IMG/VR virus record: IMGVR_UViG_3300042922_000451
Coordinates: 1-53,657 of that record
Length of the DNA: 53,657 bases
Reading direction: 5' to 3' (one strand)
Source: a virus
Taxonomy: Duplodnaviria > Caudoviricetes
Shown here: positions 7,883-52,372 of the stretch, piece by piece
Layout: the number at the start of each line of letters is the position of its first letter
How positions within the stretch are numbered: the first letter of the stretch is position 1
Made by a program: the position numbers and the translations under genes
The notes under the pieces: model-generated
What the model saw: the letters and a program-made list of their open reading frames with translations, nothing else
Databases searched by the model: none
Told to the model about the DNA's origin: nothing

Positions 7883-8098
7883 TTATTCTAAAAATATTAT
7901 AATATATTCATCTGTTTTTTGAACATCTACTATTTTTTTAGGAACCCCTAAAAAATCAAATTCGCTACCTATTTTATCTACATATGCTTTTAATAAAGCT
8001 TCCTTATGACATACTATACCAGGTGCTATATTAGTATCTTTATTAGGAACACTAATGACTATTGGTTTATTTACAATCTTCTCTATAAAATTATCCAC
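7883..8098 (-). CDS. Hypothetical protein, paralog of the C-terminal half of 8110-8583
   Basis: CHKEALLKAYVDKIGS vs CSKGVLLKSYIDKIGS. Confidence 0.7.
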   Translation of the reverse strand: MDNFIEKIVNKPIVISVPNKDTNIAPGIVCHKEALLKAYVDKIGSEFDFLGVPKKIVDVQKTDEYIIIFLE

Positions 8099-8109
8099 AA
8101 TAACCTCTC

Positions 8110-8583
8110 CTATTCTAATTCAATATAAATGGTTTTCTCTGTAACTTTAACACTTACTACTTTTCTTTTCTCACCAGCGTAATCGATGCAAGAACCTATT
8201 TTGTCTATATAACTTTTCAACAATACTCCTTTAGAACAAGCAATACATTCTGTAAACCATGCATCTTCATAAGGAACTGTAAAAATAATATTCTCTCTAG
8301 CCTTATCTATTTGAGTTATTCTGAATTTATCCAAACATATTGGATCGGGTAAAGTCAATTTATAAACGCCATCCGAATTTTGCTTTATTACTGGTGGTAT
8401 GATTCTATCCCAACCATATCTAACATCCATATCTTTACCAATCCCTCCAATTATATCATAAAAATCAAATACAGATGCAACACCATATTTTATAATATTA
8501 GAATTTAAACCGTCAAGTATCAAGTCTGCATCCTTTTTATTTTCACACATTATATTACTGAAAGCCATATATCTTATATTCAT
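8110..8583 (-). CDS. Two-domain hypothetical protein
   Basis: N-half resembles the C-terminus of 8596-9312 (YG.A.V.D.Y...GWD...L.LP); C-half resembles 7883-8098. Confidence 0.7.
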   Translation of the reverse strand: MNIRYMAFSNIMCENKKDADLILDGLNSNIIKYGVASVFDFYDIIGGIGKDMDVRYGWDRIIPPVIKQNSDGVYKLTLPDPICLDKFRITQIDKARENIIFTVPYEDAWFTECIACSKGVLLKSYIDKIGSCIDYAGEKRKVVSVKVTEKTIYIELE

Positions 8584-8595
8584 TTATTTCTCCTC

Positions 8596-9312
8596 CTAAT
8601 CTAATGGTATAGCTCTTGGTAAATTCAATTGCCATCCACCACGTGCTCTACTTACTCTAACTCTACTAAGGTCATCCCAACCAAATTTATCATCTGTAAA
8701 GCTACTAGATATTCCAACCAAACCATACAAATCCGAAACAGTAGCTTGACCATAGTCAGTAATCAAATCAACCAAATGTCCAAGAACTTCTTCAGCTTCA
8801 TCATAAGATTCAAGAACTATATCATCAAACGTATGTCGACTTATATTTCTAGATGATGCTTCTCTTCTATCATCTCGTTTATTAGATGAATAGCTATTAT
8901 AACTTACATAAGATTTATTTCTATTTCCTCGACTTCTATTTCTAACAGCCTCACCAAATAAAGCAACTTCTATTCCAGTCTGAACGGCATCGAATATACC
9001 CTGAGCTATATCAGTTATAGTGCTTTTTGCTGAAGGAACTAATACATCTTTAATAATGTAATCCTTAACATTGATTATATCATCGGCTATAAATGTCTCC
9101 ATAAATCTTTTACTTAACGATTTTTTTCTAGTTATGACTTTACCCTGAGTAACTCGTTCAACTTTCTTGGGTTCTTCTTTTTCCTCTTTTTTATAGATGC
9201 TATTTGATGGATAAGAATCTTTAAGAAGTTTTTTATTACGGTCATCTAGTTCTATTCCGGCATGAGCGTCCTGTGCATAATCGCCAGCATCTATAATATC
9301 TTTCTTAGTCAT
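8596..9312 (-). CDS. Hypothetical phage protein
   Basis: 238-aa ORF, AGGAGG RBS, ATGA overlap. Confidence 0.75.
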   Translation of the reverse strand: MTKKDIIDAGDYAQDAHAGIELDDRNKKLLKDSYPSNSIYKKEEKEEPKKVERVTQGKVITRKKSLSKRFMETFIADDIINVKDYIIKDVLVPSAKSTITDIAQGIFDAVQTGIEVALFGEAVRNRSRGNRNKSYVSYNSYSSNKRDDRREASSRNISRHTFDDIVLESYDEAEEVLGHLVDLITDYGQATVSDLYGLVGISSSFTDDKFGWDDLSRVRVSRARGGWQLNLPRAIPLD

Positions 9313-9865: not shown

Positions 9866-10129
9866 CTATTCGACTTCATACTTTACGTTTTCAATTATAT
9901 TTCTTATATTCTGCACATCTTCCACAACTTCGTCTATTTTACTTTCAGTATATTTTGTTGCAGCTTCGCTTATCATGCTAGTTAACACAAAACCACCAAT
10001 CCCCATACAAACTTTTGTTGCTAGTTTTAATGGTCCTGGTGTCGTATATTTAATCGCATTTTTAACAATTGCTCCAACTCCTACTGAAACTATAATATTA
10101 CTAACTGCTTTTATTGTACTTTTGTTCAT
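9866..10129 (-). CDS. Hypothetical membrane-associated cassette protein
   Basis: Start at ATG after GAAAGGTGG; the track's TTG start is part of the RBS; followed by hairpin and T-run. Confidence 0.7.
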   Translation of the reverse strand: MNKSTIKAVSNIIVSVGVGAIVKNAIKYTTPGPLKLATKVCMGIGGFVLTSMISEAATKYTESKIDEVVEDVQNIRNIIENVKYEVE

Positions 10130-10160
10130 AATAATTCCACCTTTCAAGTTTTAGTCTCTC

Positions 10161-10185
10161 ATTATAGCATATGTTTTTCATGCGA
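10161..10185 (-). promoter_or_regulatory. TCGC-box promoter copy 1
   Basis: TCGCATGAAAAACATATGCTATAAT. Confidence 0.8.
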
Positions 10186-10233
10186 TTTAAAAAATAGAAT
10201 GCTATGTAATCATAACACTCTATTTGTTGATCA

Positions 10234-10449
10234 TTAATCTTGATCATCTGGTTTTTCTGATAAATCTCCAGGTTCATTTCCTTCTTCAGAATAATCCATA
10301 TTATTTCCTACTGCCTCAACAAAGTGAATCTCTTCTGGTGTATCTTTCTTTGTAACTAATGCTAATCCTAGCAAAGCTCCTCCGATAATTAACGCCTTTT
10401 TAGCAATTTCACCTTTGTTTGATTTGATAATGTCTAATATTTTTTTCAT
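10234..10449 (-). CDS. Single-TM protein with acidic tail
   Basis: ALIIGGALLGLALV; has its own promoter and a terminator at ~10188-10226. Confidence 0.7.
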   Translation of the reverse strand: MKKILDIIKSNKGEIAKKALIIGGALLGLALVTKKDTPEEIHFVEAVGNNMDYSEEGNEPGDLSEKPDDQD

Positions 10450-10480
10450 TTTTTAATTCCACCTTTCAAATATATCTTTC

Positions 10481-10505
10481 ATTATATGGTATGTAATTTT
10501 CGCGA
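10481..10505 (-). promoter_or_regulatory. TCGC-box promoter copy 2
   Basis: TCGCGAAAATTACATACCATATAAT. Confidence 0.8.
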
Positions 10506-10508
10506 GCA

Positions 10509-11339
10509 TTAATAATCTCTAGTCACATACTTTGGTTCAGTTTCAAAATCTAATGATAAACACGGACGTCCGTCATCTGTTAAATGACTACTAAAATATG
10601 GTTTAATCAAATCACTACCAACTTGGTCTAAATGCCATCCAACAAGGTCCCCCAACTTAGTGCCTTCCAATCCAAGTTCTTGATAAACCTGACTTAATGA
10701 TATAAACATATCACTCATTAAATCTCTGCTAAGTTTATTCAAAGCAGCTCTTATTTTATCAGCATCACTTTTAAAGTATCTGCCAGACATGACATCATAA
10801 CATAAAGTCTCTCCACTTCCAGTGATTATTACTTCGTTTTTACTAACTGGATTCTTATTTATTTTATCTTGTTTAACATCGTCTGATATTTTCTGTTCTT
10901 TTGTTTTACCTACCACCTCAACTACTTTTGCTTGATATTCCTTCAGAGCAGTTTCAGATATAGAATATAAACTGACTAGAGCTGCATTTCTACGTAGGTT
11001 TATACTATTTGCACCAACAATACATGCTATTGTGGCACCCCCCATAAGAACTGTCGGTACATAGCATTTCCATGTTAGTTTAATTACTTCTTTTTTAGTG
11101 AAATCTTTTATTATTTCATTAACTGGTGGAACCATCTTAGTTTTACCATCTATAGTCACTTCCCCATCTCTTCTCTTTCTAAAGGTCTCATCCTGAAGAA
11201 TTTGTAGAGCTTTAGGGGTAGCTCTAATACCCATTATAGTAGTACCAATCATACCAGCCACACTTATGCCTGTTAATATGGTTGGTGAATTTTTAGAAGT
11301 AAAACTACCTATCGATTTAGTTAACGATTTTATATCCAT
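10509..11339 (-). CDS. DUF6353-like phage protein, paralog of 6593-7525
   Basis: NSPTILTGISVAG, RRNAALVSLY, SLSQVYQELG..VGW. Confidence 0.7.
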   Translation of the reverse strand: MDIKSLTKSIGSFTSKNSPTILTGISVAGMIGTTIMGIRATPKALQILQDETFRKRRDGEVTIDGKTKMVPPVNEIIKDFTKKEVIKLTWKCYVPTVLMGGATIACIVGANSINLRRNAALVSLYSISETALKEYQAKVVEVVGKTKEQKISDDVKQDKINKNPVSKNEVIITGSGETLCYDVMSGRYFKSDADKIRAALNKLSRDLMSDMFISLSQVYQELGLEGTKLGDLVGWHLDQVGSDLIKPYFSSHLTDDGRPCLSLDFETEPKYVTRDY

Positions 11340-11353
11340 TTGTTATTCCTCCT

Positions 11354-11668
11354 TTATAAAAATTCTTTTAACGGAATAATTTCTCCATCAGAATTAGCGA
11401 TGTTTAAATGTCCAACACTCTGTTCTAATTTCCGATAGTCATACTCCGATATACAAATTAAATTTAATCTAAATTGTGTTGCCATATTTGCGAAGTCTGG
11501 TGATTCTTTTATTGTTAGAAGATCTTGATGATTCTCTAATAATTCACGAATTAATTGTTCTATTAGAGATTCCTTAATTGAGTTCATTAAATATTCTTTA
11601 CCATGAACTAATTCTTCATTAGATATTTTTAATCGTGCTCGTATCAACTGGTGTTTTTTCATTTTCAT
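11354..11668 (-). CDS. Hypothetical protein, paralog of 11619-11999
   Basis: MKKHQLI..IS..ELV shared N-terminus. Confidence 0.7.
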   Translation of the reverse strand: MKMKKHQLIRARLKISNEELVHGKEYLMNSIKESLIEQLIRELLENHQDLLTIKESPDFANMATQFRLNLICISEYDYRKLEQSVGHLNIANSDGEIIPLKEFL

Positions 11669-11999
11669 TCTCCTTTAAAAAAAAGTTTTTTAATAATATT
11701 TTAATATCATCTATTGTCAGATCTCCAGTATCATTACATATTTGATTAATAATCCAGTTCATTCGATCATTATCATCATGTTGAATGGCTACCAAATTTA
11801 ACGTGTAAACCGTTAAATTATTTTTGAAATCTGTTTCAACTTCCATCTTTAAGAAATCACGATTTTCAGTACATAAATTTTTTATTAATTGGATTGTCAA
11901 GTAATCTTGAATGGTACTTTCAGTTAAAATAAGTGGAGCCTTTACTAATTCAGCCTCGGATATTGATGTTGTTACTTGTATTATCTGGTGTTTTTTCAT
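11619..11999 (-). CDS. Hypothetical protein, paralog of 11354-11668
   Basis: Start placed at MKKHQII after GAAAGGAG. Confidence 0.7.
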   Translation of the reverse strand: MKKHQIIQVTTSISEAELVKAPLILTESTIQDYLTIQLIKNLCTENRDFLKMEVETDFKNNLTVYTLNLVAIQHDDNDRMNWIINQICNDTGDLTIDDIKILLKNFFLKENENEKTPVDTSTIKNI

Positions 12000-12000
12000 T

Positions 12001-12231
12001 TTAGTTCTCCTTTCTAAATGCTTTATAACTAATAAATAAATCATTAACCCAATCTTTATTATTGCCTAATTCTGGATCTATAAAGCTAGCACCAATTAAA
12101 ATTTCTCTATATCCATCGCTATCCGTAACATCCCATATTTCTCTAACTATACATGTTTTTCCCTTATTTTTACCAAACAATGGACTAACGTGATTTCCGC
12201 TTTTTAAAGTTTCAAATTCTTTTAATTTCAT
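12001..12231 (-). CDS. Small KOW-like protein
   Basis: G.NKGK..IVR motif shared with 12483-12875. Confidence 0.65.
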   Translation of the reverse strand: MKLKEFETLKSGNHVSPLFGKNKGKTCIVREIWDVTDSDGYREILIGASFIDPELGNNKDWVNDLFISYKAFRKEN

Positions 12232-12254
12232 GGCGATATCCCTTTCGATTTTTA

Positions 12255-12452
12255 TTATTTATTTTTAGATTGAATAGCGAATTGATATAGTAAAAATGGC
12301 CACAATAATTCAATTACTAAGAATAAACAACACAATACCCAAACTATATGAAGTTCTGATTCATATGAATCCATCTTAAACAATACAATAATGTATAAAA
12401 TCAGACCAATTAATAGGTATATTCCTATAAACACATTTATTATAATTTGCAT
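12255..12452 (-). CDS. Two-TM membrane protein
   Basis: YLLIG...LWP pattern also seen in 17201-17431 and 17497-17691. Confidence 0.65.
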   Translation of the reverse strand: MQIIINVFIGIYLLIGLILYIIVLFKMDSYESELHIVWVLCCLFLVIELLWPFLLYQFAIQSKNK

Positions 12453-12482
12453 GGTGATTATTTCCTTTTCCTCTTTTATTTT

Positions 12483-12875
12483 TTATAAATCAATTTTTCT
12501 AATATGCATATTTACTATGTCAACGTCATCGTCATCGTCACATAATTTCATTTGTTCAAGCATTTTTTCAAGAGCATCTATAGCCTCTTGTTTAGATTCC
12601 GCAACGATCCATCCTATTATTCGATTTGGTTCAATTTCTTTTTCAATGAAATTTACTTGTGTATACTTAAACATATACCATTTGACCTTATCGATCTCAT
12701 ATTTTTTAAGTTCCTTGTTACTAAGTTCAAAACTACAATTTTTTGGTTCTAACCATACAAATCCAGTATCAGTACTTAAATGCCTAACAATACCTATTTT
12801 TCCTTTATTGCGACCGCGGTGTGTCACAATGAGTTCATCTCCAATATTTACATTTTTAAGTTGGTCTGCTTTCAT
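12483..12875 (-). CDS. KOW-like domain protein
   Basis: IGDELIVTHRGRNKGKIGIV; AAGGAG RBS. Confidence 0.65.
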   Translation of the reverse strand: MKADQLKNVNIGDELIVTHRGRNKGKIGIVRHLSTDTGFVWLEPKNCSFELSNKELKKYEIDKVKWYMFKYTQVNFIEKEIEPNRIIGWIVAESKQEAIDALEKMLEQMKLCDDDDDVDIVNMHIRKIDL

Positions 12876-12928
12876 TTTTATTAACTCCTTTCATTCTTTA
12901 CAATTATAGTAAATACTAATGATTCATT

Positions 12929-13246
12929 TTATTCACGGTACTTTTTATATAGATTTCTAATTTCATAATCTATATATGCCTGTTTATAGTTAATACTATT
13001 TTTTACTAAATCCATCACAACCATAAAATATTTAATGGCTCTAGTTAGCTCCTCAACACAAGCCCCTTTTTTCAACATATCTTTAATCAAATTAAACGCC
13101 CCACCAATCTTTGCATGGCGCATTTTAATACTTAATTCTGTCATTTCATCATAAGCTGGATAAGAAGCTTTAGGATCAAAGTTTCTAAGCTCCTCATTAT
13201 TGATTTGCATTTTGGTGATTTGTTCCAACACATTATTCTTTACCAT
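12929..13246 (-). CDS. Stand-alone paralog of an internal segment of the putative phage RNA polymerase (105 aa)
   Basis: 42/84 identical, ungapped, to residues 595-678 of 46989-49823; RBS TTGAAAGGAG before MVKNN. Confidence 0.85.
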   Translation of the reverse strand: MVKNNVLEQITKMQINNEELRNFDPKASYPAYDEMTELSIKMRHAKIGGAFNLIKDMLKKGACVEELTRAIKYFMVVMDLVKNSINYKQAYIDYEIRNLYKKYRE

Positions 13247-13270
13247 TTCATTAACTCCTTTCAATTTTAG

Positions 13271-13343
13271 AAAAAAATATAGGCATAGCACTTCTCCCAT
13301 TTCAGGGCGTTTTAACTTTTAAACTATTAACGGCTGCTATTCC
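13271..13343 (-). ncRNA. Candidate structured small RNA or terminating leader A
   Basis: Lies between promoter copy 3 and a U7 tract. AGGAAUAGCA/UGCUAUGCCU closes two inner hairpins (CGUU/AACG; CCC-UGAAAU-GGG). No ORF with an RBS. Confidence 0.55.
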
Positions 13344-13347
13344 TTTC

Positions 13348-13372
13348 ATTATATGCTATGTAATCTTCGCGA
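13348..13372 (-). promoter_or_regulatory. TCGC-box promoter copy 3
   Basis: TCGCGAAGATTACATAGCATATAAT. Confidence 0.8.
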
Positions 13373-13373
13373 G

Positions 13374-13565
13374 CTAGTCAGCAAGAAGCCAAAGTTTTCC
13401 ATAATATAATACAGCTTCATTATATAATTCCTGAGTTACCAATGTAGTTTCATTAAGTCCCTTTGCCCATAAAACAGCCCTACTAGAATACGCATATTCC
13501 TCTGGGTATATTTTTGATAATTCTATAGTGGTGTTTTGTATTAGTCTTTTTATTTTTTCATTCAT
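13374..13565 (-). CDS. Hypothetical protein, paralog of 15791-15979
   Basis: KIYPEE...SR...W...Y..A....G.LWL shared. Confidence 0.7.
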   Translation of the reverse strand: MNEKIKRLIQNTTIELSKIYPEEYAYSSRAVLWAKGLNETTLVTQELYNEAVLYYGKLWLLAD

Positions 13566-13626
13566 AATAATTCCACCTTTCAAAAAATATGATGCTAAGT
13601 TTCCTTAACATCTTTTGTAAACTAAT

Positions 13627-13815
13627 TTATTCTTTTTCAACGGTTATCCTTACGTGGTCAGCTTTACACTTTATCTTAATTGTGTCTTTAGTATTTCCTT
13701 CTTGGCTCTTATTAGGATTAGGAATTTCAAATTCCATTTCATAATTTCTAGCTTCGAATAAAACACCCTTCTTCATCAATGCAGATACAAGCATATCTTT
13801 TATATTTCCTAACAT
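13627..13815 (-). CDS. Hypothetical cassette protein
   Basis: RBS GAAAGGGG; followed by GATGTTAAG-GAAA-CTTAGCATC hairpin and T-run. Confidence 0.7.
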   Translation of the reverse strand: MLGNIKDMLVSALMKKGVLFEARNYEMEFEIPNPNKSQEGNTKDTIKIKCKADHVRITVEKE

Positions 13816-13850
13816 AATAATATCCCCTTTCAAAAATAAGTTTATCTTTC

Positions 13851-13875
13851 ATTATACCCTGTGTAATTTCTGCGA
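13851..13875 (-). promoter_or_regulatory. TCGC-box promoter copy 4
   Basis: TCGCAGAAATTACACAGGGTATAAT. Confidence 0.85.
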
Positions 13876-13877
13876 GC

Positions 13878-13994
13878 AAAAAAGAAAGAGTACTAATGGA
13901 CTCCCTCGACTAAATACTATAAACTCCACCTTATAGTTTGCGATGTTAATATCTTTCAATATTATCCTCTTAGTGTTCATTGGCTTGAACTTCT
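13878..13994 (-). ncRNA. Candidate structured small RNA B
   Basis: Lies between promoter copy 5 and terminator GAGGGAGU/ACUCUUUC-U6. Hairpins GUUCA/UGAAC, AAUAUU-GAAA-GAUAUU and ACUAUAA/UUAUAGU; ACUAA/UUAGU closes a junction. Confidence 0.6.
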
Positions 13995-13999
13995 CTTTC

Positions 14000-14024
14000 A
14001 TTATACCCTGTGTAATTTCTGCGA
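14000..14024 (-). promoter_or_regulatory. TCGC-box promoter copy 5
   Basis: TCGCAGAAATTACACAGGGTATAAT, identical to copies 4 and 8. Confidence 0.85.
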
Positions 14025-14038
14025 GCAAAAAAAGAAGA

Positions 14039-14233
14039 CTAAGCTTCTTTCGCTATAATCTCCATTTCTTTTATTTTTTGTAATCCTTTATCTATTTTTT
14101 TCTGTAAATCCTTATTTAATTCTTTTTCAGTTCTAATCTCCTTAAGTCCCTTCAAACCTTTATATATCATTACTATACCCGCTATCATTAATGCTCCGCG
14201 TAATCCTAATTCCACTTTATTGTTTGTAAACAT
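14039..14233 (-). CDS. Single-TM coiled-coil cassette protein
   Basis: AGGAGG RBS; ends KEA-stop inside the terminator. Confidence 0.75.
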   Translation of the reverse strand: MFTNNKVELGLRGALMIAGIVMIYKGLKGLKEIRTEKELNKDLQKKIDKGLQKIKEMEIIAKEA

Positions 14234-14268
14234 AATTAATTCCTCCTAAAATTCTTATTAATTCTTTC

Positions 14269-14293
14269 ATTATATACTGTGTAATTTCCGCGA
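14269..14293 (-). promoter_or_regulatory. TCGC-box promoter copy 6
   Basis: TCGCGGAAATTACACAGTATATAAT. Confidence 0.8.
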
Positions 14294-14308
14294 GGATAGA
14301 ATTATTCA

Positions 14309-14710
14309 CTATTCAGACTTTGGGTGATCCGTAGAATCAATATAGTTATAACTAACAGTCTCAGACCCATCAACTATCGGTATTCTTGAAGGTATATCTT
14401 GTAATTCTGGATGTTTTTCTTCCATCCACATAGCCCCTAATATATTCCAAGCCGCAGCAGTTAAATGGTCCTCGTCGGTTTGTCCGTCTAAATATTTTAA
14501 CAAATGTCTCATTCCACTATCAATCATAACACTAAGTGGAATTCCTTTTTCCCAATTTCTATCGGCATATTTTTTAGCACCTTCTTCATAATGTTTTGAT
14601 AATCTTAATAAAGCACACGCAGGTAATAAATCGCACCTACCCTTTCCATTAGGCATATCTCTAACCGCACCGGAACTAAATTCTCGTCTATTTCCACTAT
14701 CTTTTAACAT
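14309..14710 (-). CDS. dATP/dGTP diphosphohydrolase domain protein (DUF5664-like)
   Basis: GAVRD..GKGRCDLLP, GAKKYADRNWEKG, EDHLTAAAWN. Confidence 0.85.
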   Translation of the reverse strand: MLKDSGNRREFSSGAVRDMPNGKGRCDLLPACALLRLSKHYEEGAKKYADRNWEKGIPLSVMIDSGMRHLLKYLDGQTDEDHLTAAAWNILGAMWMEEKHPELQDIPSRIPIVDGSETVSYNYIDSTDHPKSE

Positions 14711-14734
14711 ATTATATCACCTCTGTTTTATATA

Positions 14735-15130
14735 TTATAGCATTTGATTTATTTTATACAATTGTTCGCGGTACATATCAGTATCGAAATTATGCCCGAA
14801 TCTCATCTTTCTAACCCTGGCCAAAGCCCAATCGCGCCGATCATGTTTTTTACCAATCATAAATGTTGACGCCCATGGTGTGGCATTGGGACTAATATAA
14901 AAATATAATGGTACCCATATTAATTTTCCTCCATATGAGAAGAAGTCCACAATTCCACAGAAAAGCGGTAATCTGAAACATATATACCCAAATTTTTTAG
15001 TGCTAAATGTTACACCAAAGTGCATAGCATTATCTCCAAAAATCGTTAGCTTACCAATACTAATGTGTCCGCCTATTATTCTATTTAAGAATCTACCAAT
15101 CTTTCTCTTCACAATATATTTATTAATCAT
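14735..15130 (-). CDS. Hypothetical protein
   Basis: 131-aa ORF in an operon with thyX. Confidence 0.65.
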   Translation of the reverse strand: MINKYIVKRKIGRFLNRIIGGHISIGKLTIFGDNAMHFGVTFSTKKFGYICFRLPLFCGIVDFFSYGGKLIWVPLYFYISPNATPWASTFMIGKKHDRRDWALARVRKMRFGHNFDTDMYREQLYKINQML

Positions 15131-15141
15131 ATTACCATCCC

Positions 15142-15765
15142 CTATTTCAATAATTTTACTATATCTTCAAATATTACCGGCATTACTTCATATAATTCCA
15201 TTAATAATGGTACAGTCACTTCTCTTATTTGTGGATGCGCAGCCTGTGACGTACGTAGCCTCAAGAAGTGTCTCCACTCACGTATGTTCGCTGTCATTAT
15301 TATATCTGTCTTGAGACTATTTGGTAATACCGAACGAGCTTCTTGTGGTGTTGCTCCATCATTTAATAATGATATATAATTATATTCTGCTACTTCACAC
15401 GACCTTTTCCATTTGTCATATTCTTCATCCGTCGATTCCCAGAATAATGGCTCAATAACCGTTATTTCATCAGCTTTTCCATAATTACAATATCGCGTTG
15501 ACTCTTGTGAAAATGATGCTATTCTATGACGCACTATCTCATGAGATATCCCCCTATCCACAATAAAGCGTACTGAGAAGCTAACATGTTCTAGCACAGA
15601 TTCGTGTCCTCTATTTATGATGTTTACAATAAACTTCTCAGCTGAGCTTACTGTTATTTTTTCTTCAGATTTATAACAAACTCGTCCACAAAGTTCTATT
15701 TTTTTCAGAATATCGTGCCCTTTCAATTCATCTATAATTGAGTAACTAGCTTTAATAATGTTCAT
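15142..15765 (-). CDS. thyX: Flavin-dependent thymidylate synthase
   Basis: HESVLEH, RHRIASFSQESTRY, ARSVLP, AHPQIR motifs. Confidence 0.95.
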   Translation of the reverse strand: MNIIKASYSIIDELKGHDILKKIELCGRVCYKSEEKITVSSAEKFIVNIINRGHESVLEHVSFSVRFIVDRGISHEIVRHRIASFSQESTRYCNYGKADEITVIEPLFWESTDEEYDKWKRSCEVAEYNYISLLNDGATPQEARSVLPNSLKTDIIMTANIREWRHFLRLRTSQAAHPQIREVTVPLLMELYEVMPVIFEDIVKLLK

Positions 15766-15790
15766 ATATTTTCCTCCCTATTATTTTAAT

Positions 15791-15979
15791 TTATTTTCTA
15801 GTATAAAGCCATAAGTCGCCAAAATGACTCTTAGCCTGTTCGTAAAAGTCTAGAGTTATTAAACCATCAATTAAAGCCATAGTCCACACACTCCATCTAC
15901 TGCCACCATCAGCTTCTTCCGGATATATTTTTAATAACTCAGTTGTTTTCTCATCAAAAATTTCAATATTTACTTCCAT
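15791..15979 (-). CDS. Hypothetical protein, paralog of 13374-13565
   Basis: Paralogy; GAAAGGAGG RBS. Confidence 0.7.
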   Translation of the reverse strand: MEVNIEIFDEKTTELLKIYPEEADGGSRWSVWTMALIDGLITLDFYEQAKSHFGDLWLYTRK

Positions 15980-16011
15980 GGTAATCCTCCTTTCAAAAAA
16001 TAAAAAGAAGC

Positions 16012-16170
16012 TTATTCAGCTTCCTTCTTTAAATTCTTTTTAATTTTTATTACAAATTTAATATTATCGATAAATGCATCTCCTAGATTTGTTATGTATT
16101 CTACCACCATAATAATTGTCATGATTGGTAAGTATAATAGACCTACTATAAAATATAAAATCTTTTTCAT
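16012..16170 (-). CDS. 52-aa membrane cassette protein (not in ORF track)
   Basis: MKKILYFIVGLLYLPIMTIIMVVEY...KKEAE; AGGAGG RBS; own promoter and terminator. Confidence 0.75.
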   Translation of the reverse strand: MKKILYFIVGLLYLPIMTIIMVVEYITNLGDAFIDNIKFVIKIKKNLKKEAE

Positions 16171-16196
16171 ATTAATTCCTCCTAAAAATTTATTTC

Positions 16197-16221
16197 ATTA
16201 TATGATATGTAATTTCAGCGA
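16197..16221 (-). promoter_or_regulatory. TCGC-box promoter copy 7
   Basis: TCGCTGAAATTACATATCATATAAT. Confidence 0.8.
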
Positions 16222-16223
16222 GC

Positions 16224-16333
16224 AAAAAAAAGAGCTAGGGCTGACGACCCAACGAAAATCGTCATTAGGGAGTTTCTCTGCTCCCGCCTAGTAGAGTGGA
16301 CTATTGCTCCACCACCTTCGTGTCTTACTACTC
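16224..16333 (-). ncRNA. Candidate structured small RNA C (two three-way junctions)
   Basis: GC-rich island between promoter copy 8 and U8. AGUAG/CUACU closes CAC-GAAG-GUG and GUGGA/UCCAC; CUAGG/CCUAG closes GGGAG/CUCCC and UGACGAU/GUCGUCA. Confidence 0.7.
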
Positions 16334-16337
16334 TTTC

Positions 16338-16362
16338 ATTATACCCTGTGTAATTTCTGCGA
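16338..16362 (-). promoter_or_regulatory. TCGC-box promoter copy 8
   Basis: TCGCAGAAATTACACAGGGTATAAT. Confidence 0.85.
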
Positions 16363-16393
16363 GCTAATTATTCTTCATGATAATTTATCATAT

Positions 16394-17143
16394 CTAAAAT
16401 AACCCGTTCAACAAATTAATTAATGGTATTGCTATTCTTTTATGACCGTCTTCATTTGGATGCACCCCATCTCCCTTATTAGAATAATATTTCTCAAACA
16501 TATACCCATTATTAGGATTTAATCCACTATATTTATTTGTGTCATATATAATACATCCATACAATTCAGAAATATCTCTAATAGCTTTTCTATAATCGCC
16601 TAATAAAGCTCCTGTAGCATTTTTAGTATAATCAAATACATTATCTCCGTACGTAGCAATTAACGGCGTCATTAATACTATTTTAGCCTTAGGGTACATA
16701 GCTTGCATATTATATATTGTCTCACCCAGTGCCCCTATAAATGTTTTTCTATCAGTAGAGAAGTCACCTATTGGTACATTCATCGCATAATCATTGGTAC
16801 CACCAAATATAACGATTATATCAAAGTAATCTCTAGGATATTCTTTTATGATGTCTTTATATCTATCTACAAATGCCCCATATTTAGCATTGTTATTCTC
16901 TGCAATAGTTGACTCGTTTTGTCCAAAATTATAACAGTTAGCTCCTGTTTCTTGTGCTATAATATCTATATACTTTTTAGTTCCATTCTTAGCAGTTAAG
17001 CTATCTCCTAAGAATACTATATTTTTATCACTCAATTTAGATTGGTTTTCTATTGACTCATTAGCGTTCGTACTTACCCTTGGTAACGTTGACCATAATA
17101 CCGATATAAATAACAAACCAATTGCTAATATTATTTTTCTCAT
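16394..17143 (-). CDS. Secreted SGNH/GDSL-family esterase
   Basis: Signal peptide; GDSL, GGTND and DGVHP catalytic blocks. Confidence 0.9.
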   Translation of the reverse strand: MRKIILAIGLLFISVLWSTLPRVSTNANESIENQSKLSDKNIVFLGDSLTAKNGTKKYIDIIAQETGANCYNFGQNESTIAENNNAKYGAFVDRYKDIIKEYPRDYFDIIVIFGGTNDYAMNVPIGDFSTDRKTFIGALGETIYNMQAMYPKAKIVLMTPLIATYGDNVFDYTKNATGALLGDYRKAIRDISELYGCIIYDTNKYSGLNPNNGYMFEKYYSNKGDGVHPNEDGHKRIAIPLINLLNGLF

Positions 17144-17200
17144 AATTTTACACCATCCTTTTTTAAATTATGTGATAATTTCATTAATAAAAAGGAAAGC

Positions 17201-17431
17201 CTAAGCTTCCTTATTGTTTTTATTTTCGCAATATAATCCAATATGATTTAATATTAATATAATTGACCAAAATAGTATTACTATTAGCATGCCTGTCACA
17301 CATCCCATTTTCCATCCTAAACGTTCATCTGCATCCTTCAAACCAATGTATTCATCTTTATTAAGTGATGCGCGTAAGGCCCAAATAGCATATACTACTC
17401 CTATCAATAAGTATGTAATTAATATAATCAT
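17201..17431 (-). CDS. Two-TM cassette protein
   Basis: AAGGAGG RBS; ends NKEA-stop. Confidence 0.75.
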   Translation of the reverse strand: MIILITYLLIGVVYAIWALRASLNKDEYIGLKDADERLGWKMGCVTGMLIVILFWSIILILNHIGLYCENKNNKEA

Positions 17432-17458
17432 TTTATATTCCTCCTTAAAATTTATTTC

Positions 17459-17483
17459 GTTATAGCATATGTTTCTAATGCGA
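17459..17483 (-). promoter_or_regulatory. TCGC-box promoter copy 9
   Basis: TCGCATTAGAAACATATGCTATAAC (variant -10). Confidence 0.75.
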
Positions 17484-17496
17484 GCAAAAAAGAAGA

Positions 17497-17691
17497 CTAA
17501 GCTTCTTTATTTCTCTCATTAATTAGATATATAAATGCCCATATGTTTGTTACTGGCCACACAATAGTTCCTAATACAATACTTAATACGTACCATCCAA
17601 TAAATTCTTTCTCAAATTCTTTTCGTTGATTCCATATTCCTATTCCACTATTTATTATTCCTATCACCAAGTAAATTACTATATATTTCAT
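17497..17691 (-). CDS. Two-TM cassette protein
   Basis: AAGGAG RBS; YLVIG...VWP; ends NKEA-stop. Confidence 0.75.
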   Translation of the reverse strand: MKYIVIYLVIGIINSGIGIWNQRKEFEKEFIGWYVLSIVLGTIVWPVTNIWAFIYLINERNKEA

Positions 17692-17720
17692 ATTAATACT
17701 CTCCTTTTAATTAAGATTTC

Positions 17721-17745
17721 ATTATACCCTGTGTAATTTGTGCGA
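17721..17745 (-). promoter_or_regulatory. TCGC-box promoter copy 10
   Basis: TCGCACAAATTACACAGGGTATAAT. Confidence 0.85.
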
Positions 17746-17773
17746 GCAAAAAAGAAAGCCTAAGCTTTCCTTA

Positions 17774-17884
17774 CTAATGTGTTCGTAAATATCTTATAAA
17801 TACCCATACAAGCCAAAAACCGCCTGTGAAAATAGTCATTAGTAAATCAAACATAATACCAATTCCACTTTGTTTATTTTTCAT
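17774..17884 (-). CDS. 36-aa membrane microprotein (not in ORF track)
   Basis: MKNKQSGIGIMFDLLMTIFTGGFWLVWVFIRYLRTH; GGAGG RBS; own promoter and terminator. Confidence 0.8.
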   Translation of the reverse strand: MKNKQSGIGIMFDLLMTIFTGGFWLVWVFIRYLRTH

Positions 17885-17911
17885 AATAAGCACCCTCCAT
17901 TTATTTCTTCT

Positions 17912-17936
17912 ATTATAGCATATGTTCCTGATGCGA
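17912..17936 (-). promoter_or_regulatory. TCGC-box promoter copy 11
   Basis: TCGCATCAGGAACATATGCTATAAT. Confidence 0.8.
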
Positions 17937-17966
17937 TCAAAAAAAAAAAGAAAGGCTAAGCTTTCT

Positions 17967-18299
17967 TTAAATTTGTTCTAATATCGTATCACCTTCTGCT
18001 AATATAACTTTACTGTGTTTACCTAGTATAAGTCCTATGTAATTACAGCCGTCTTTAATTATGGCAAATGATGCTTCGTCGTTATTAGCATTTAAATCTA
18101 ATGCTTTCTTAGCTGATTCTAATGATATAAAACTTCGATCTGGTCTCCAACTAATCGCATCCAATTCTTTAGGTATTAAATGAAAATTCTTATTATAGTA
18201 TCTATTTGTTAGGTATACGGCTCCAATTAATCCACCTATAATAGACCCTAATATAATTTCATTTTTATTTTCCTTAATGAATTTTTTAATTTTTGACAT
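17967..18299 (-). CDS. Single-TM cassette protein
   Basis: KIKKFIKENK..IILGSIIGGLIGAVYL. Confidence 0.75.
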   Translation of the reverse strand: MSKIKKFIKENKNEIILGSIIGGLIGAVYLTNRYYNKNFHLIPKELDAISWRPDRSFISLESAKKALDLNANNDEASFAIIKDGCNYIGLILGKHSKVILAEGDTILEQI

Positions 18300-18327
18300 A
18301 GTCAATCCACTCCTTAAAATTTATTTC

Positions 18328-18352
18328 ATTATATCATATGTATCCCTCGCGA
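18328..18352 (-). promoter_or_regulatory. TCGC-box promoter copy 12
   Basis: TCGCGAGGGATACATATGATATAAT. Confidence 0.8.
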
Positions 18353-18378
18353 CCAAAAAAGAAAGCCGAAGCTTTCGA

Positions 18379-18600
18379 TTATTTTGTATGTAATTTTATC
18401 ACTTTCTTAAGGTCTTCATTTTTTTCACATTCTTTTAATAATAGTTCTTTAAAACATTCAGCTGTGTCTTTCCATATGCCGATAACTTCATTGTTAACTT
18501 TTTTGTTTTGTTTCTCAACAATAGTTCCTCCAATTAAAGCTCCAATCATTAGAAATGGCACACCTATTAGTCCTATACCTATTATATCATTTTTGTTCAT
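18379..18600 (-). CDS. Single-TM cassette protein
   Basis: Start placed at MNKNDII after AGGAGG. Confidence 0.75.
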   Translation of the reverse strand: MNKNDIIGIGLIGVPFLMIGALIGGTIVEKQNKKVNNEVIGIWKDTAECFKELLLKECEKNEDLKKVIKLHTK

Positions 18601-18631
18601 AATATAACCTCCTAAGTTTTTAATTACTTTC

Positions 18632-18656
18632 ATTATAGGATATGTTATTTATGCGA
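18632..18656 (-). promoter_or_regulatory. TCGC-box promoter copy 13
   Basis: TCGCATAAATAACATATCCTATAAT. Confidence 0.8.
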
Positions 18657-18688
18657 CCAAAAAAGAAAGCCGAAGCTTTCCTTATTAT

Positions 18689-18874
18689 TTAGACTGCCTT
18701 TTTAAGTTGTTTAATTTCTCTTTTGAAAATCACCCTACTTAAGTAATATCCTCCAACACCGATTCCTGTTACTGCAGCCGCCGCGCCTATTATAGCTAAC
18801 GCCGGTACTATAGCAACTTCTTCGCCTACGAGTAATATTCCTTTAATGGCAATTAGTGATTTTTCCTCATCCAT
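18689..18874 (-). CDS. Small membrane cassette protein
   Basis: Start placed at MDEEKS after GAAAGGGGTG; hydrophobic core. Confidence 0.7.
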   Translation of the reverse strand: MDEEKSLIAIKGILLVGEEVAIVPALAIIGAAAAVTGIGVGGYYLSRVIFKREIKQLKKAV

Positions 18875-18901
18875 TTCTCCCACCCCTTTCAATTTAGTCT
18901 C

Positions 18902-18926
18902 ATTATAGGCTATGTTTTGGACGCGA
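18902..18926 (-). promoter_or_regulatory. TCGC-box promoter copy 14
   Basis: TCGCGTCCAAAACATAGCCTATAAT. Confidence 0.8.
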
Positions 18927-19008
18927 ATCGAGCAAAAATAAAAGGGCATGTTTTTCACACGTCCTTTTTTGGTCAGGCCCTTAATCCTTTAATGGTACAA
19001 ACTTTGGT

Positions 19009-19305
19009 TTATAATCGTCCTTTAACGACAAAACTTAATGCTTTACTAGTGATTATTCCAGCTTTCTCATATCCAAGTATCATTCCAATACCCAATAGAT
19101 TACCTGCTATTATAGCTATTGTATCTGGTTTTACATGACGAGCGTGTTCATTCTCTTTCGCCTTGTATAACTTTCCTAAATTATCAGCTATTTTAGCATA
19201 TTCCTCTGAGTCTGGATCAAATTTCTTTAGATATTCTAATACTGAATCAATCTCCTTTTCAAGATTAGTTCTTTTGTCTCTTTTGGTGACTCTTTTATTT
19301 TCCAT
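19009..19305 (-). CDS. Small phage protein with C-terminal hydrophobic segment
   Basis: DPDSEEY...PDTIAIIAGNLLGIGMILGYEK..IITSKA. Confidence 0.75.
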   Translation of the reverse strand: MENKRVTKRDKRTNLEKEIDSVLEYLKKFDPDSEEYAKIADNLGKLYKAKENEHARHVKPDTIAIIAGNLLGIGMILGYEKAGIITSKALSFVVKGRL

Positions 19306-19339
19306 TTGTTTAATCCCCTTTCAAGTTTTAATTCCTTTC

Positions 19340-19364
19340 ATTATACCATTAGTAATTCCTGCGA
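19340..19364 (-). promoter_or_regulatory. TCGC-box promoter copy 15
   Basis: TCGCAGGAATTACTAATGGTATAAT, starting immediately after the holin stop codon. Confidence 0.8.
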
Positions 19365-41743: not shown

Positions 41744-42391
41744 TTATTGTTTATTAATATCTTGTATTTCTTTGATAGAAAGAGATTTCCTTCGATCAAA
41801 TATAATAACTGGAGCAGATGATAATCCGCCATTAATATCAGCATCATCCATAATCATAGAATATCCCTGTTTTTCTAACTGCTTAAAGTACGGATCTCTT
41901 AAATCTCGTTGAGACACCAACAAATATGAAAATTTGTTATAAGCTTTTTGTGCTTGTGCTGGATCATCGAGTTTATTAAGTCTATTTTTTGGCATGAATA
42001 ATATTGGATTTCTCGTGGCCTTAATCATAGCATCTCTTGCTTTTGGATTGGAATCCATTAATTTTATAAACTCATCAACTCTCTTTTTTTCAGATGGGGA
42101 GATAATATTATGTTTAGCCTTAAACGTCATATCAACATAATTATTTCCACCACCAAACATTTTAGCGAAGTTTTTATATTGTTTAACATCCTCTGGTTTA
42201 AATGAAGCATAAGCATGACCAGAATATGTTTTTTCTTTTTCAAGCCAAGATTTTGGTATGACACGATGAATTTCAGATCCTTTTTTAATCATAATTTCGT
42301 CGGAGGAATGTTCTTTTTTACGAACACCCCATTTCATACCTTTAACACCGACATGAGCTATAAAATATTCATTATTGTTAATTATGATCAC
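41744..42391 (-). CDS. HxGxxGMKWG-motif protein, possible ADP-ribosyltransferase-like fold
   Basis: IAHVGVKGMKWGVRK N-terminus; IHR, YAS, GYSMIMD, PVIIFD; fold call tentative. Confidence 0.6.
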   Translation of the reverse strand: MIIINNNEYFIAHVGVKGMKWGVRKKEHSSDEIMIKKGSEIHRVIPKSWLEKEKTYSGHAYASFKPEDVKQYKNFAKMFGGGNNYVDMTFKAKHNIISPSEKKRVDEFIKLMDSNPKARDAMIKATRNPILFMPKNRLNKLDDPAQAQKAYNKFSYLLVSQRDLRDPYFKQLEKQGYSMIMDDADINGGLSSAPVIIFDRRKSLSIKEIQDINKQ

Positions 42392-44149: not shown

Positions 44150-44473
44150 TCATTTGACTACTTTAAAAAGCTGATCTAATTCTTTAGTAGCATATTTTGT
44201 AATGTAGTTAGCCGCTACTTGTTTCGCAGTGCTGGTTAACAAATCATTAACAAATTTTTTCCCAGGATTAATTTCTGATTGAGTTAATTGTTTATACTGT
44301 CGTTCTAACTGTAATCGTTCATTAAATGATTTTAATTCAGCATTGGTCATCTCATTTATTTTTTTACCTTTTAAACTAACTTTTTTATTATGATCATCAC
44401 TGGTTCTAACTTTTTTACGTCCCCATTTCATTCCTAAAATTCCAACATGTTCTAAAAATTCATTGTCATTCAA
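44150..44473 (-). CDS. HxGxxGMKWG-motif basic protein
   Basis: FLEHVGILGMKWG; MTNAELK..NERLQLE.QY; TTG start after GGAGG. Confidence 0.7.
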   Translation of the reverse strand: MNDNEFLEHVGILGMKWGRKKVRTSDDHNKKVSLKGKKINEMTNAELKSFNERLQLERQYKQLTQSEINPGKKFVNDLLTSTAKQVAANYITKYATKELDQLFKVVK

Positions 44474-44474
44474 T

Positions 44475-44825
44475 TTATACACCTCCTTCCACTGTTTGTG
44501 TACTCTGTGCATTAATTCTCCATTCTGCTTCGATTATTTGTCTTTCTATCGATTTTATTAGAGATTCATTTGTTGGGGGGTCAAATAATAAACGAACTTT
44601 TAGATATACGTATGTTTTTACAGCTGATAAATCTTTTCTATCACCAAATAAATCTGTCCATGTTTCTTCTTCACCTGTTATTTCAAAACCATCTGATGGA
44701 CCTACTCCTAGTTGATTTAAAGATAACATAACTGAATTTATAAATAATATTATATCTGGATCAAATTGTGTGAAATCTTGTTCATACCCTAATAATTTTT
44801 TGGTTGATATAAGTATACTATTCAT
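44475..44825 (-). CDS. Putative head-tail connector protein
   Basis: SIL.STKKLLG..FD.DII..IN..L.QLGVG...FDPP..EWRI. Confidence 0.6.
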   Translation of the reverse strand: MNSILISTKKLLGYEQDFTQFDPDIILFINSVMLSLNQLGVGPSDGFEITGEEETWTDLFGDRKDLSAVKTYVYLKVRLLFDPPTNESLIKSIERQIIEAEWRINAQSTQTVEGGV

Positions 44826-49825: not shown

Positions 49826-50380
49826 TTATTCCCCCATCTTCATTTTATCTATTTGTCTATCAAATACTATTATCTTATTCATTATATATAATATATCTTC
49901 GACATTAGGATTATATATTTCAACATCATCTAGTTGGTATATTCTTAGCTCTATTTTAATCGAGTTTGGATCTATGTCATATTCTAAACAGAATAGAGCA
50001 GTATATATTTCTAATTGTCGCATCGAAGTCGGACTCTCTCCAGTTTTTAAATCATGAATTCGTAGGAGATTTTGCTTAAAAGAAATAGCATCGGCTGTTC
50101 CGAAACAATTTTCAGAATAATATAATGGTTGTTCTGTTTGCATTTTAAAACCTATGGCATCATTAACATACATATTTAATGTAATTTTACTTTTAGGTAA
50201 TTTAATTCCTAACTTTATTAATTCGGAAGCTAACTCATGTTTTCTAGTTCCTAATTGAGCTGCTCGATATTTATTGAAGGATGTTTCTAATTTTTCTTCA
50301 TCATAGTTAACCCAATGATATTTACTAGCGCTTAGAAACGCATGCAATCCTTCTAACTCGAAATGCTTTTTGAAGTTCAT
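49826..50380 (-). CDS. PD-(D/E)XK RecB/Cas4-like exonuclease
   Basis: LSAS, GT..H, EQPL, GTAD, DLKTG, QLEIY. Confidence 0.8.
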   Translation of the reverse strand: MNFKKHFELEGLHAFLSASKYHWVNYDEEKLETSFNKYRAAQLGTRKHELASELIKLGIKLPKSKITLNMYVNDAIGFKMQTEQPLYYSENCFGTADAISFKQNLLRIHDLKTGESPTSMRQLEIYTALFCLEYDIDPNSIKIELRIYQLDDVEIYNPNVEDILYIMNKIIVFDRQIDKMKMGE

Positions 50381-50694: not shown

Positions 50695-50719
50695 ATTATA
50701 GCATACGATTTTCACGCGA
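50695..50719 (-). promoter_or_regulatory. TCGC-box promoter copy 16, upstream of the nuclease-RNAP operon
   Basis: TCGCGTGAAAATCGTATGCTATAAT. Confidence 0.75.
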
Positions 50720-51148: not shown

Positions 51149-52372
51149 TCACTCCTTAATAAATTTTATCATATTGAAATTTTTCTTATTCTTTAAACTT
51201 TTTGATATAGCTAAATCTATAACAGAATTAGATATAAGATGATAATAATATAATTCTTTAAATGGAGTATTGAGTCTATCTATTCTTCCGGCGGATTGAA
51301 CCATTATTTTATAAGAATAATTCTGAGAATAGAAAATTATAGCATTAGTTGTTATGCAATTCCAACCTTCAGCTCCTGCAGTATATTGAACTAAATATAA
51401 CCAAGTATTGTCGTCTGGTACTGTCTGGTGTATATGTCCATTCCATTCATGTGTTTTAGTATTTAATGATTCACCTAATATTTTTAGCATTTCTAATTCA
51501 TAATCGAAGTTATAAAATATTATAATCTTTCGATGTTTTTGTAATATGTCTTTTATAGCTTCAAGTCTAGAACTGTCACTATTAACAACTTTCCTCATAA
51601 GATATCCTAATTCACCGATAGAATTAATTGGTTTATTTTTAAAGATATTCCAACGTTTAATATACACTTTATCGAGTAGTTCTTTATCATATTTAACATT
51701 TATTATTTCATTATGTGAAATAGTTGGTCTTTCGTAATGCATAGTCACAATGATACTATCTCTAAGTTTACATAAATGTGAAACTTCAATATATTTTTCA
51801 ACTTTTGGGTATTTAGTGAATCTATTATATACTGCATGGCGCCTAAGAAATTCAGTACGATTTTTATAAAAATTATTTGCGACGAATACGGGAATATAAT
51901 CACCCCATGTATCACCTGGCGTAGCACTTAAAAGAATCCATCTATTTACTTTTACTATTTTTAGAAAAGTTTTAACCCATGCGCCTGAACCAACTAATCT
52001 TTGCTCATCAAAAATAAAGAATGAGTTTTTTATATTTTTGTATTTTGTAATGTTATTCCATGAATCGACTACAACTTTCACACCACTAATACTTAATTGT
52101 GATTTTGTTGATATCATAAATGGAGCACATTCTTGTTCCCATTCTAAACTATCTCTCTTTTTTGCAGTGGTGATAATGTAAAGGTCTTTTGGTTTTTTCA
52201 TTTCACCGAACTCACCTTTACCATTAATTTTTATTTCACCCTGACATTCTTTTATGAAATAATAAGCTAAAGAAGTTCTAGATTTACCTGAGCCCACTCC
52301 ACCACAAAGGATGGAGCCAGACTTCAGTTTATTTACTGCTTCTTTCTGATAGTTATATAGTTCTATAGCCAT
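51149..52372 (-). CDS. SF2 DNA helicase
   Basis: GGVGSGKS, IFDEQ, LSATP, QSAGRIDR. Confidence 0.9.
   Translation of the reverse strand: MAIELYNYQKEAVNKLKSGSILCGGVGSGKSRTSLAYYFIKECQGEIKINGKGEFGEMKKPKDLYIITTAKKRDSLEWEQECAPFMISTKSQLSISGVKVVVDSWNNITKYKNIKNSFFIFDEQRLVGSGAWVKTFLKIVKVNRWILLSATPGDTWGDYIPVFVANNFYKNRTEFLRRHAVYNRFTKYPKVEKYIEVSHLCKLRDSIIVTMHYERPTISHNEIINVKYDKELLDKVYIKRWNIFKNKPINSIGELGYLMRKVVNSDSSRLEAIKDILQKHRKIIIFYNFDYELEMLKILGESLNTKTHEWNGHIHQTVPDDNTWLYLVQYTAGAEGWNCITTNAIIFYSQNYSYKIMVQSAGRIDRLNTPFKELYYYHLISNSVIDLAISKSLKNKKNFNMIKFIKE

Follow-up and report, generated by a model that had tools for sequence, protein, structure and literature searches.

The stretch of DNA analysed here (the window) is the complete IMG/VR virus record IMGVR_UViG_3300042922_000451, a Caudoviricetes genome of 53,657 bp with direct terminal repeats, the repeat measuring 127 bp. 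Its GC content is 32.7%, and every long open reading frame (ORF) lies on the minus strand. Placed far from the gene for the phage's own putative RNA polymerase is a gene of 105 amino acids (aa), whose product is a free-standing copy of one internal helical module of that enzyme. Similar small genes occur in a few other phages, so the product looks like a kept protein, and we regard the gene as real and probably maintained, belonging to a rare and so far undescribed group of proteins that consist of a free-standing polymerase module. The features on which this rests are:

12929-13246 (minus strand, span including the stop codon): 105-aa small gene, a free-standing copy of the helical module that follows the barrel in the polymerase
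13261-13255 (minus strand): Shine-Dalgarno-like AAAGGAG, 8 nt before the ATG at 13246
46989-49823 (minus strand): 944-aa parent, a single-chain two-barrel putative RNA polymerase flanked by helix-turn-helix (HTH) domains, of the phage-1706/actinophage type and QDE-1/YonO-like
47787-48041 (minus strand): parent segment, polymerase residues 595-679

The small gene and the polymerase module that it copies

A BLASTP comparison of the small ORF in its 123-aa form (12929-13300, minus strand) with the 944-aa ORF returned a single gap-free block, in which 42 of 85 residues are identical and 60 of 85 are positive (E 1e-25); all remaining blocks between the two have E >5. The block pairs residues 38-122 of the 123-aa form, which are residues 20-104 of the 105-aa form, with polymerase residues 595-679. 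A first-pass annotation of this DNA had described an ungapped alignment to residues 595-678 (47790-48041); its coordinates are correct, and the block itself extends to residue 679. The same annotation had the copy starting about 20 residues past the aspartate motif and lacking the catalytic aspartates, which agrees with a G-A-D-x-D-G-D motif at residues 568-574 of the parent and a block that begins 21 residues later. In a six-frame search of the entire record, matches were confined to 12932-13246 and 47787-48047.

The first 19 residues of the small protein form a unique N-terminal helix ahead of the homologous part. The strong ribosome-binding site claimed earlier is borne out by the AAAGGAG before the ATG at 13246; a longer in-frame start, the ATG at 13300, has no Shine-Dalgarno-like site. 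The gene downstream of the small gene (ATG at 12875) shares the GAAAGGAGTTAAT context. At 30.2%, the GC content of the small gene compares with 32.7% for the genome.

Structure prediction of the small protein alone, which had been proposed as a check, gave a confident fold in AlphaFold 2 (AF2), with a predicted local distance difference test score (pLDDT) of 90.6 and a predicted template modelling score (pTM) of 0.84. The model is all-helical (helices 2-16, 40-59, 64-79, 87-93 and 96-104), and its helices are in register with those of the polymerase model at an offset of 575, preceded by the protein's own helix 2-16. The small protein matches phrog_4291 at profile positions 533-630 of 909 only (E 4e-19), and a Pfam search assigned it to no family. 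The aspartate triad DxDGD, which the polymerase carries in a double-psi beta-barrel, is absent; lacking both barrels and the triad, the small protein therefore cannot polymerise. Its model had no match below E 1 among PDB structures, a search of the ESM Atlas gave no usable match, and a plasmid search gave none.

For the 944-aa parent, the match to phrog_4291 (E 0, 1237 bits) covers almost the entire protein, and Pfam gives HTH matches at both of its ends. Across 106 aligned sequences of the family, residues G568, A569, D570, D572, G573 and D574 never vary. For its AF2 model (pLDDT 88.8, pTM 0.82), the best Foldseek match in the PDB is QDE-1 (E 1.4e-8, probability 1.00), and further best matches are the non-virion polymerases of Thermus phages P74 (gp62, E 5e-6) and P32 (gp64) and plant RDR2 (1.8e-5); the low TM-scores (0.3) are what a model with several domains would be expected to give. 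Sequence searches of the PDB with the polymerase, and with its profile, found HTH matches only. By its phrog_4291 membership, the invariant DxDGD and the fold match to solved members, the parent is a putative two-barrel polymerase, in keeping with its earlier description as the phage's RNA polymerase. Its family is called putative YonO-like polymerases in the accessible text of a preprint on the kinship of actinophages and Firmicutes phages (10.1101/842583) and of an earlier review (PMC2919709). Our literature search on this HTH-flanked YonO-like phage family found no experimental work.

The copied segment, residues 595-679, holds eight of the 33 invariant columns of the family (M622, G623, N627, L628, D631, D654, K657 and H658). 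In the parent model, the barrel's final strand (575-580) leads into a loop that includes a short helix; next come helices 615-634 and 639-658 and, beyond a turn of three residues, helices 662-668 and 671-679. According to the available portions of the structural papers, the aspartate barrel of QDE-1, DPBB2, spans 916-1018, and after it comes the flap (1025-1161), a subdomain of its own that is mostly helical and together with the barrels forms a putative nucleoside triphosphate (NTP) tunnel (PMC1750930); within this flap lie the bridge-helix residues L1082, G1083, M1084, N1087 and R1091 and the trigger loop (1102-1136), whose K1119 is on the NTP gamma-phosphate (PMC9508822). The phage motif M622-G623-x3-N627 has the same G-to-N spacing as the QDE-1 motif [L/M]-G-x3-N, and the invariant K657/H658, 34-35 residues past the glycine (36 in QDE-1), close a 20-residue helix that runs into a three-residue loop. 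At these motif positions, the small protein of the window has I47, G48, N52 and K82. Because chain order, helix pattern and motif spacing match QDE-1, we infer, by this correspondence and not by superposition, that the copied piece is probably the bridge-helix/trigger-loop ('flap') module of the polymerase. Weighing against the assignment, its basis is order, secondary structure and a short motif, the last being weak evidence, and the invariant D631 sits at the position of QDE-1 R1091, so the match to the QDE-1 bridge helix is imperfect.

A family of small and fused proteins and its constraint

An exhaustive HMMER search over 1.84 billion representatives gave 585 matches at E<=1e-3, with 149 non-self matches listed. 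Among those listed, at least 105 are polymerases of 860-1030 aa, and at least 14 are small proteins (96-132 aa) with an initial methionine that carry the module and continue for no more than about 20 residues beyond the module's closing KY motif. Such a search for stand-alone forms had been set as a check on the first-pass annotation, and with at least 14 others found the small form is not confined to this genome. One further member, of 116 aa, came from a profile run on a word index. Besides the fusions, at least 15 small proteins share the boundaries at which homology starts and ends. A literature search found no description of a free-standing bridge-helix/trigger-loop module.

Fusions of the module to other small domains number at least four among the matches listed: P0004, P0043 (with a weak DpnD/PcfM-like domain), P0109 (with a weak C-terminal match to a CxxC...CxxC zinc ribbon) and P0127 (with a DUF7736-like extension, also a weak match). 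In the metagenomic P0004 (212 aa), the module (598-679, E 6e-25) follows directly on the winged-HTH region of the polymerase (117-174, E 2e-8), both barrels being missing. The best BFVD match of the small-protein model is a deposited 190-aa 'RNA-dependent RNA polymerase' from an uncultured siphovirus (TMq 0.81, E 6.5e-6), which in our reading consists of the module and an extension only.

A second example with its genome is provided by G042, an IMG/VR record of 55,093 bp (93% complete), in which the small gene P0071 and an intact 916-aa polymerase frame lie 13 kb apart. Small copy and intact polymerase thus stand together in both of the two records examined. In G042, the gene preceding the small one is the polymerase/primase gene, and translation of the small gene probably begins at an internal ATG that has GAGGAGG in front of it, which would give a protein of about 93 aa without the added N-terminal helix. 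Pattern scans of IMG/VR found polymerases only, apart from these two records.

Two other ideas were discarded along the way. The gene had seemed a singleton, since a word-index search (proteins of 57-184 aa) saw the query alone; the exhaustive HMMER search then revealed the family, and the profile run on the word index recovered only seven, so this index is insensitive here. Naturally split polymerases were suggested by proteins of about 365-394 aa that seemingly start at the module boundary, and these were gene-calling artefacts where checked. P0122 (371 aa), for example, is an internal TTG start within a full 922-aa polymerase frame (locus L134, 3348-6116).

Over the aligned 255 nt, the window gene and its parent are 62.7% identical in nucleotide sequence. 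Identity by codon position is 0.73, 0.69 and 0.46, against about 0.30, 0.30 and 0.32 expected from composition; the similarity is therefore old and held at the protein level, not that of a recent DNA repeat. Conservation was compared between the segment in 107 polymerases and the set of small or fused proteins, 19 in all. Fourteen positions are conserved in both sets alike, mostly core hydrophobic residues together with D654 and K657, and seven are conserved in polymerases only (L595, M622, S649, M650, I653, A655 and Q679). Of the invariant residues, the small and fused set keeps K657 in 17/19, D654 in 16/19, G623 in 15/19, N627, D631 and H658 in 13/19 each, and M622 in 4/19. The window copy retains the hydrophobic core and six of the eight invariant residues, with G48, N52, D56, D79 and K82 corresponding to G623, N627, D631, D654 and K657; its changes at invariant or near-invariant sites are M622 to I, H658 to N, S649 to F, I653 to M, A655 to L and Q679 to R. 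The earlier judgement that the protein is maintained rather than debris is supported by the confident fold of the lone protein, the set of at least 15 with the same boundaries, the second record with an intact polymerase and the divergence at third codon positions.

The history of the family was followed in trees. In a free tree of 126 rows and 85 columns, the small proteins are scattered among the polymerases, requiring seven changes, and the P0071 group is sister to the polymerase of its own record with 89% support. An approximately unbiased (AU) test did not reject a single clade of small proteins (p 0.689), the constrained tree scoring 14.9 log-likelihood units above the quick free search; this test used a subset of 52 rows, comprising all 19 small or fused proteins and 33 of the 107 polymerases (every fourth, seven chosen neighbours and the two own polymerases), with 74 left out. 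As the test fails to reject one clade, independent origins, which we had considered, are not shown, and the trees may accommodate one origin or several. For both small proteins examined, the polymerase of the same genome ranks first of 107 in similarity, by a small margin, and a control based on shared rare residues gave a weak result that is not exceptional for the window. The sequences thus weakly suggest that the small gene derives from the resident polymerase.

Expression signals and genome setting

The motif TCGC-N15-TATAAT occurs in 15 exact copies in the window, all on the minus strand, against 0.16 expected; 14 fall within 10161-19364, and one, at 50695-50719, lies upstream of the nuclease and polymerase genes. 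It is probably an early or middle promoter class of the phage. Several copies have a longer common core, AAATTACACAGGGTATAAT. The features around the two loci are as follows:

13348-13372 (minus strand): copy of the promoter-like motif TCGC-N15-TATAAT, 102 nt upstream of the ATG of the small gene
13271-13344 (minus strand): leader, with a long-range stem (13344-13281) and then a U7 run (13277-13271)
14309-14710 (minus strand): MazG-like pyrophosphohydrolase-type protein
15142-15765 (minus strand): thymidylate synthase
49826-50380 (minus strand): exonuclease, directly upstream of the polymerase
51149-52372 (minus strand): helicase

The next copy downstream of the small gene is at 10481-10505, immediately upstream of ORF 10234-10449, and from these positions the small gene is the first of about seven genes in its unit. 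With the same promoter class upstream of the small gene and of the polymerase operon, the small protein is probably made together with the polymerase. A structured terminating RNA upstream of the gene was considered and set aside: its minimum free energy is -18.1 kcal/mol (z-score -0.61), and 56 of 200 shuffled sequences fold as well. A terminator scan did not call the leader stem and U7 run.

Two soil metagenome DNA runs carry the stretch and may be its source, and no RNA run is listed with it. The second run holds a near-identical variant, with differences at window positions 12524, 14515, 17939 and 9308: 6 bases are deleted from an Asp run in the adjacent 130-aa gene and 15 from the region of the MazG-like gene, and there are a 1-base indel and one G>A. 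Compared with the window, the contigs of this run show zero differences inside the small gene. The nearest relative of the polymerase in IMG/VR is 66% identical, and those in deposited phages are at most 53% identical; a close relative of the window phage is therefore so far unsampled. Megablast of window positions 10000-16000 against deposited phages gave no match, and a pattern scan of IMG/VR found no relative of the neighbouring gene at 12483-12875.

Several other ORFs of the window, all on the minus strand, are paralogous. The N-terminus of a 157-aa ORF (8110-8583) copies the C-terminal part of its full phrog_4079 neighbour (8596-9312), and a 71-aa ORF (7883-8098) copies the C-terminus of the 157-aa ORF. 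Further pairs in the early region are 13374-13583/15791-15979, 11354-11668/11619-12044, 5985-6239/6261-6470 and 10509-11339/6593-7540, the last being phrog_2152 in both members. Two head-module proteins (41744-42391 and 44150-44512) have a common N-terminal stretch of 29 residues that is 59% identical (E 9e-6); BLAST gave no link between either of them and the polymerase.

Possible roles and known systems

We consider it likely that the small protein is made and functional. That it serves as a trans-acting soluble mimic of the polymerase's active-site module is a tentative reading, to which we give slightly less than even weight, and its mechanism is put forward as a proposal. On this proposal, the product of the 105-aa gene would be soluble, would fold independently as a copy of the helical module located after the aspartate-bearing barrel, and would be synthesized alongside the polymerase from the same promoter class. 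In the enzyme, the original module, as the counterpart of the QDE-1 flap, would line the putative NTP entry tunnel together with the barrels. The small protein could then dock on the polymerase and tune or switch its activity; alternatively, it could titrate a protein or small molecule that targets the polymerase's own bridge-helix/trigger-loop module. For the module-only family as a whole, action in trans at the active-site entrance, either as a timer or switch of transcription or as a decoy that shields the enzyme's most conserved and vulnerable module against an inhibitor of host or rival origin, is conceivable but doubtful. The window gene has the hallmark of a domain mimic, a small protein homologous to one domain of a larger one. 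When the polymerase core (228-944) and the small protein were modelled as a complex, without controls, the score was 0.00, which counts neither way.

A number of points weigh against a maintained, trans-acting mimic. A tethered module would far outcompete a free copy for docking on the barrels, which weakens a simple dominant-negative version, and the decoy version would depend on a putative ligand. The small-protein clusters are tiny, each with one or two members on one to five contigs; whole-record searches of 41 related IMG/VR entries, four of them at least 90% complete, turned up no second copy, and the small protein as query hits 250 places in 249 deposited phage records. The leader stem and U7 run may be an attenuator or terminator and could end transcription before the small gene. 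The dN/dS of the window gene against its parent, 0.185 (NG86) or 0.26 (LWL85), speaks for constraint, but dS is saturated, so these values are a rough upper-level indication only, and they average the strongly constrained polymerase branch with that of the small gene. The terminal branch of the small protein (1.08) is about eight times longer than that of its parent (0.13); far longer, yet constrained, it indicates a protein that evolves faster, not freely.

The same observations bear on other explanations. The gene might be a non-functional or nearly neutral by-product of partial duplication, a chance-open ORF carried along in an early operon. Eight paralogous ORF pairs exist among the 97 minus-strand ORFs, including two more small ORFs that are partial copies, so partial duplication is routine in this genome, which also counts against a maintained mimic; the rarity of the small forms and their tiny clusters fit a by-product as well, and there is no close phage relative for a conservation test, the nearest polymerase being only 66% identical. 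A neutral copy of this age, however, would be expected to have decayed or to bear stop codons, whereas here third-position identity has fallen near to the random value while first and second positions remain high. At least 15 separate small proteins with identical homology start and end, a confident predicted fold that includes the added N-terminal helix, a proper ribosome-binding site and a GC content that fits the genome argue in the same direction, and we judge the by-product explanation to be quite improbable. Unlikely too, though less so, is that the module has become a neofunctionalised helical scaffold with a role outside transcription (replication, host takeover or another conflict), the fusions reflecting its new use. 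In both records, the gene lies among early or replication-side genes and not beside the polymerase, residues invariant in polymerases are relaxed in the small set (M622, N627, D631 and H658), the fusion partners are unrelated to polymerases, as far as their weak matches tell, and the branches of the small proteins are long. Nevertheless, the equivalents of D654 and K657 are still present in most of the set, P0004 retains a second polymerase piece, the winged HTH, with the module, and in both records the own polymerase is the most similar of 107, with the reservations on margin and rare residues given above.

The least likely of the explanations, and one that we consider very improbable, is a weapon between phages, in which the free module would poison the polymerase of a co-infecting or superinfecting related phage and thereby exclude it. 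Few parts of the enzyme are as well conserved as the copied segment, over which polymerases have a median identity of 58% and those of the window and G042 share 70.6%; one mimic could therefore fit the polymerases of many relatives, and placement in the early region would also suit an exclusion gene. Set against this are the same docking handicap relative to the intramolecular module and the immunity that the phage's own polymerase would need, for which no compensating difference was identified. A trans-acting mimic, tentative as it is, remains the reading that we carry forward.

To our knowledge, the bridge helix and trigger loop are moving parts central to all two-barrel RNA polymerases. Several antibiotics and regulators also target them. 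A natural protein consisting of this module only, found beside the intact enzyme in at least two distant phages, would offer a simple handle on how little-studied phage polymerases are controlled or attacked, and equally on whether the module folds and binds alone. If the module does act in trans at the active-site entrance, this would be a way to control or shield a polymerase that is undescribed for any RNA polymerase; if the small genes are functionless, they would still illustrate cleanly how single domains of large proteins are spun off in phage genomes. As for database labels, at least one entry, the deposited 190-aa 'RNA-dependent RNA polymerase', likely needs correction in our reading.

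Among characterised enzymes, YonO of the Bacillus prophage SPbeta resembles the 944-aa parent in being a single-chain two-barrel phage polymerase; it was shown to transcribe late genes and is a model for a possible role of the parent (PMC5467207). It differs in that its authors report no detectable trigger-loop homology, and the accessible part of their paper describes no free-standing module (PMC5467207). The QDE-1 flap, as far as the available structural text goes, is likewise mainly helical, directly follows the aspartate barrel and shares [L/M]-G-x3-N with a lysine 34-36 residues on. It is, in contrast, part of the enzyme chain, whereas the phage module occurs here as a separate product beside an intact enzyme; the flap also has 137 residues against 85, and R1091 where the phage module has Asp. 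Within the phage-1706/actinophage polymerases, the small protein is 43-49% identical to the matching stretch in many members, but it is no polymerase itself, as both barrels are missing, along with the DxDGD loop and the HTH ends.

Proteins that mimic one domain and compete for its partners are known from the microProteins of plants and animals and from the poxvirus pseudosubstrate K3L. Like these, the small protein is short and homologous to one domain of a larger protein; they mimic interaction or substrate domains with known partners, whereas the domain copied here is a module at the active site of an enzyme that the phage itself encodes. In cellular polymerases whose largest subunit is naturally split, such as archaeal A'/A'' and cyanobacterial gamma/beta', parts of the active-site region likewise come on separate polypeptides. 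Those, however, are obligatory halves of one enzyme, whereas the window phage has a complete enzyme and carries the small gene as a copy in addition to it.
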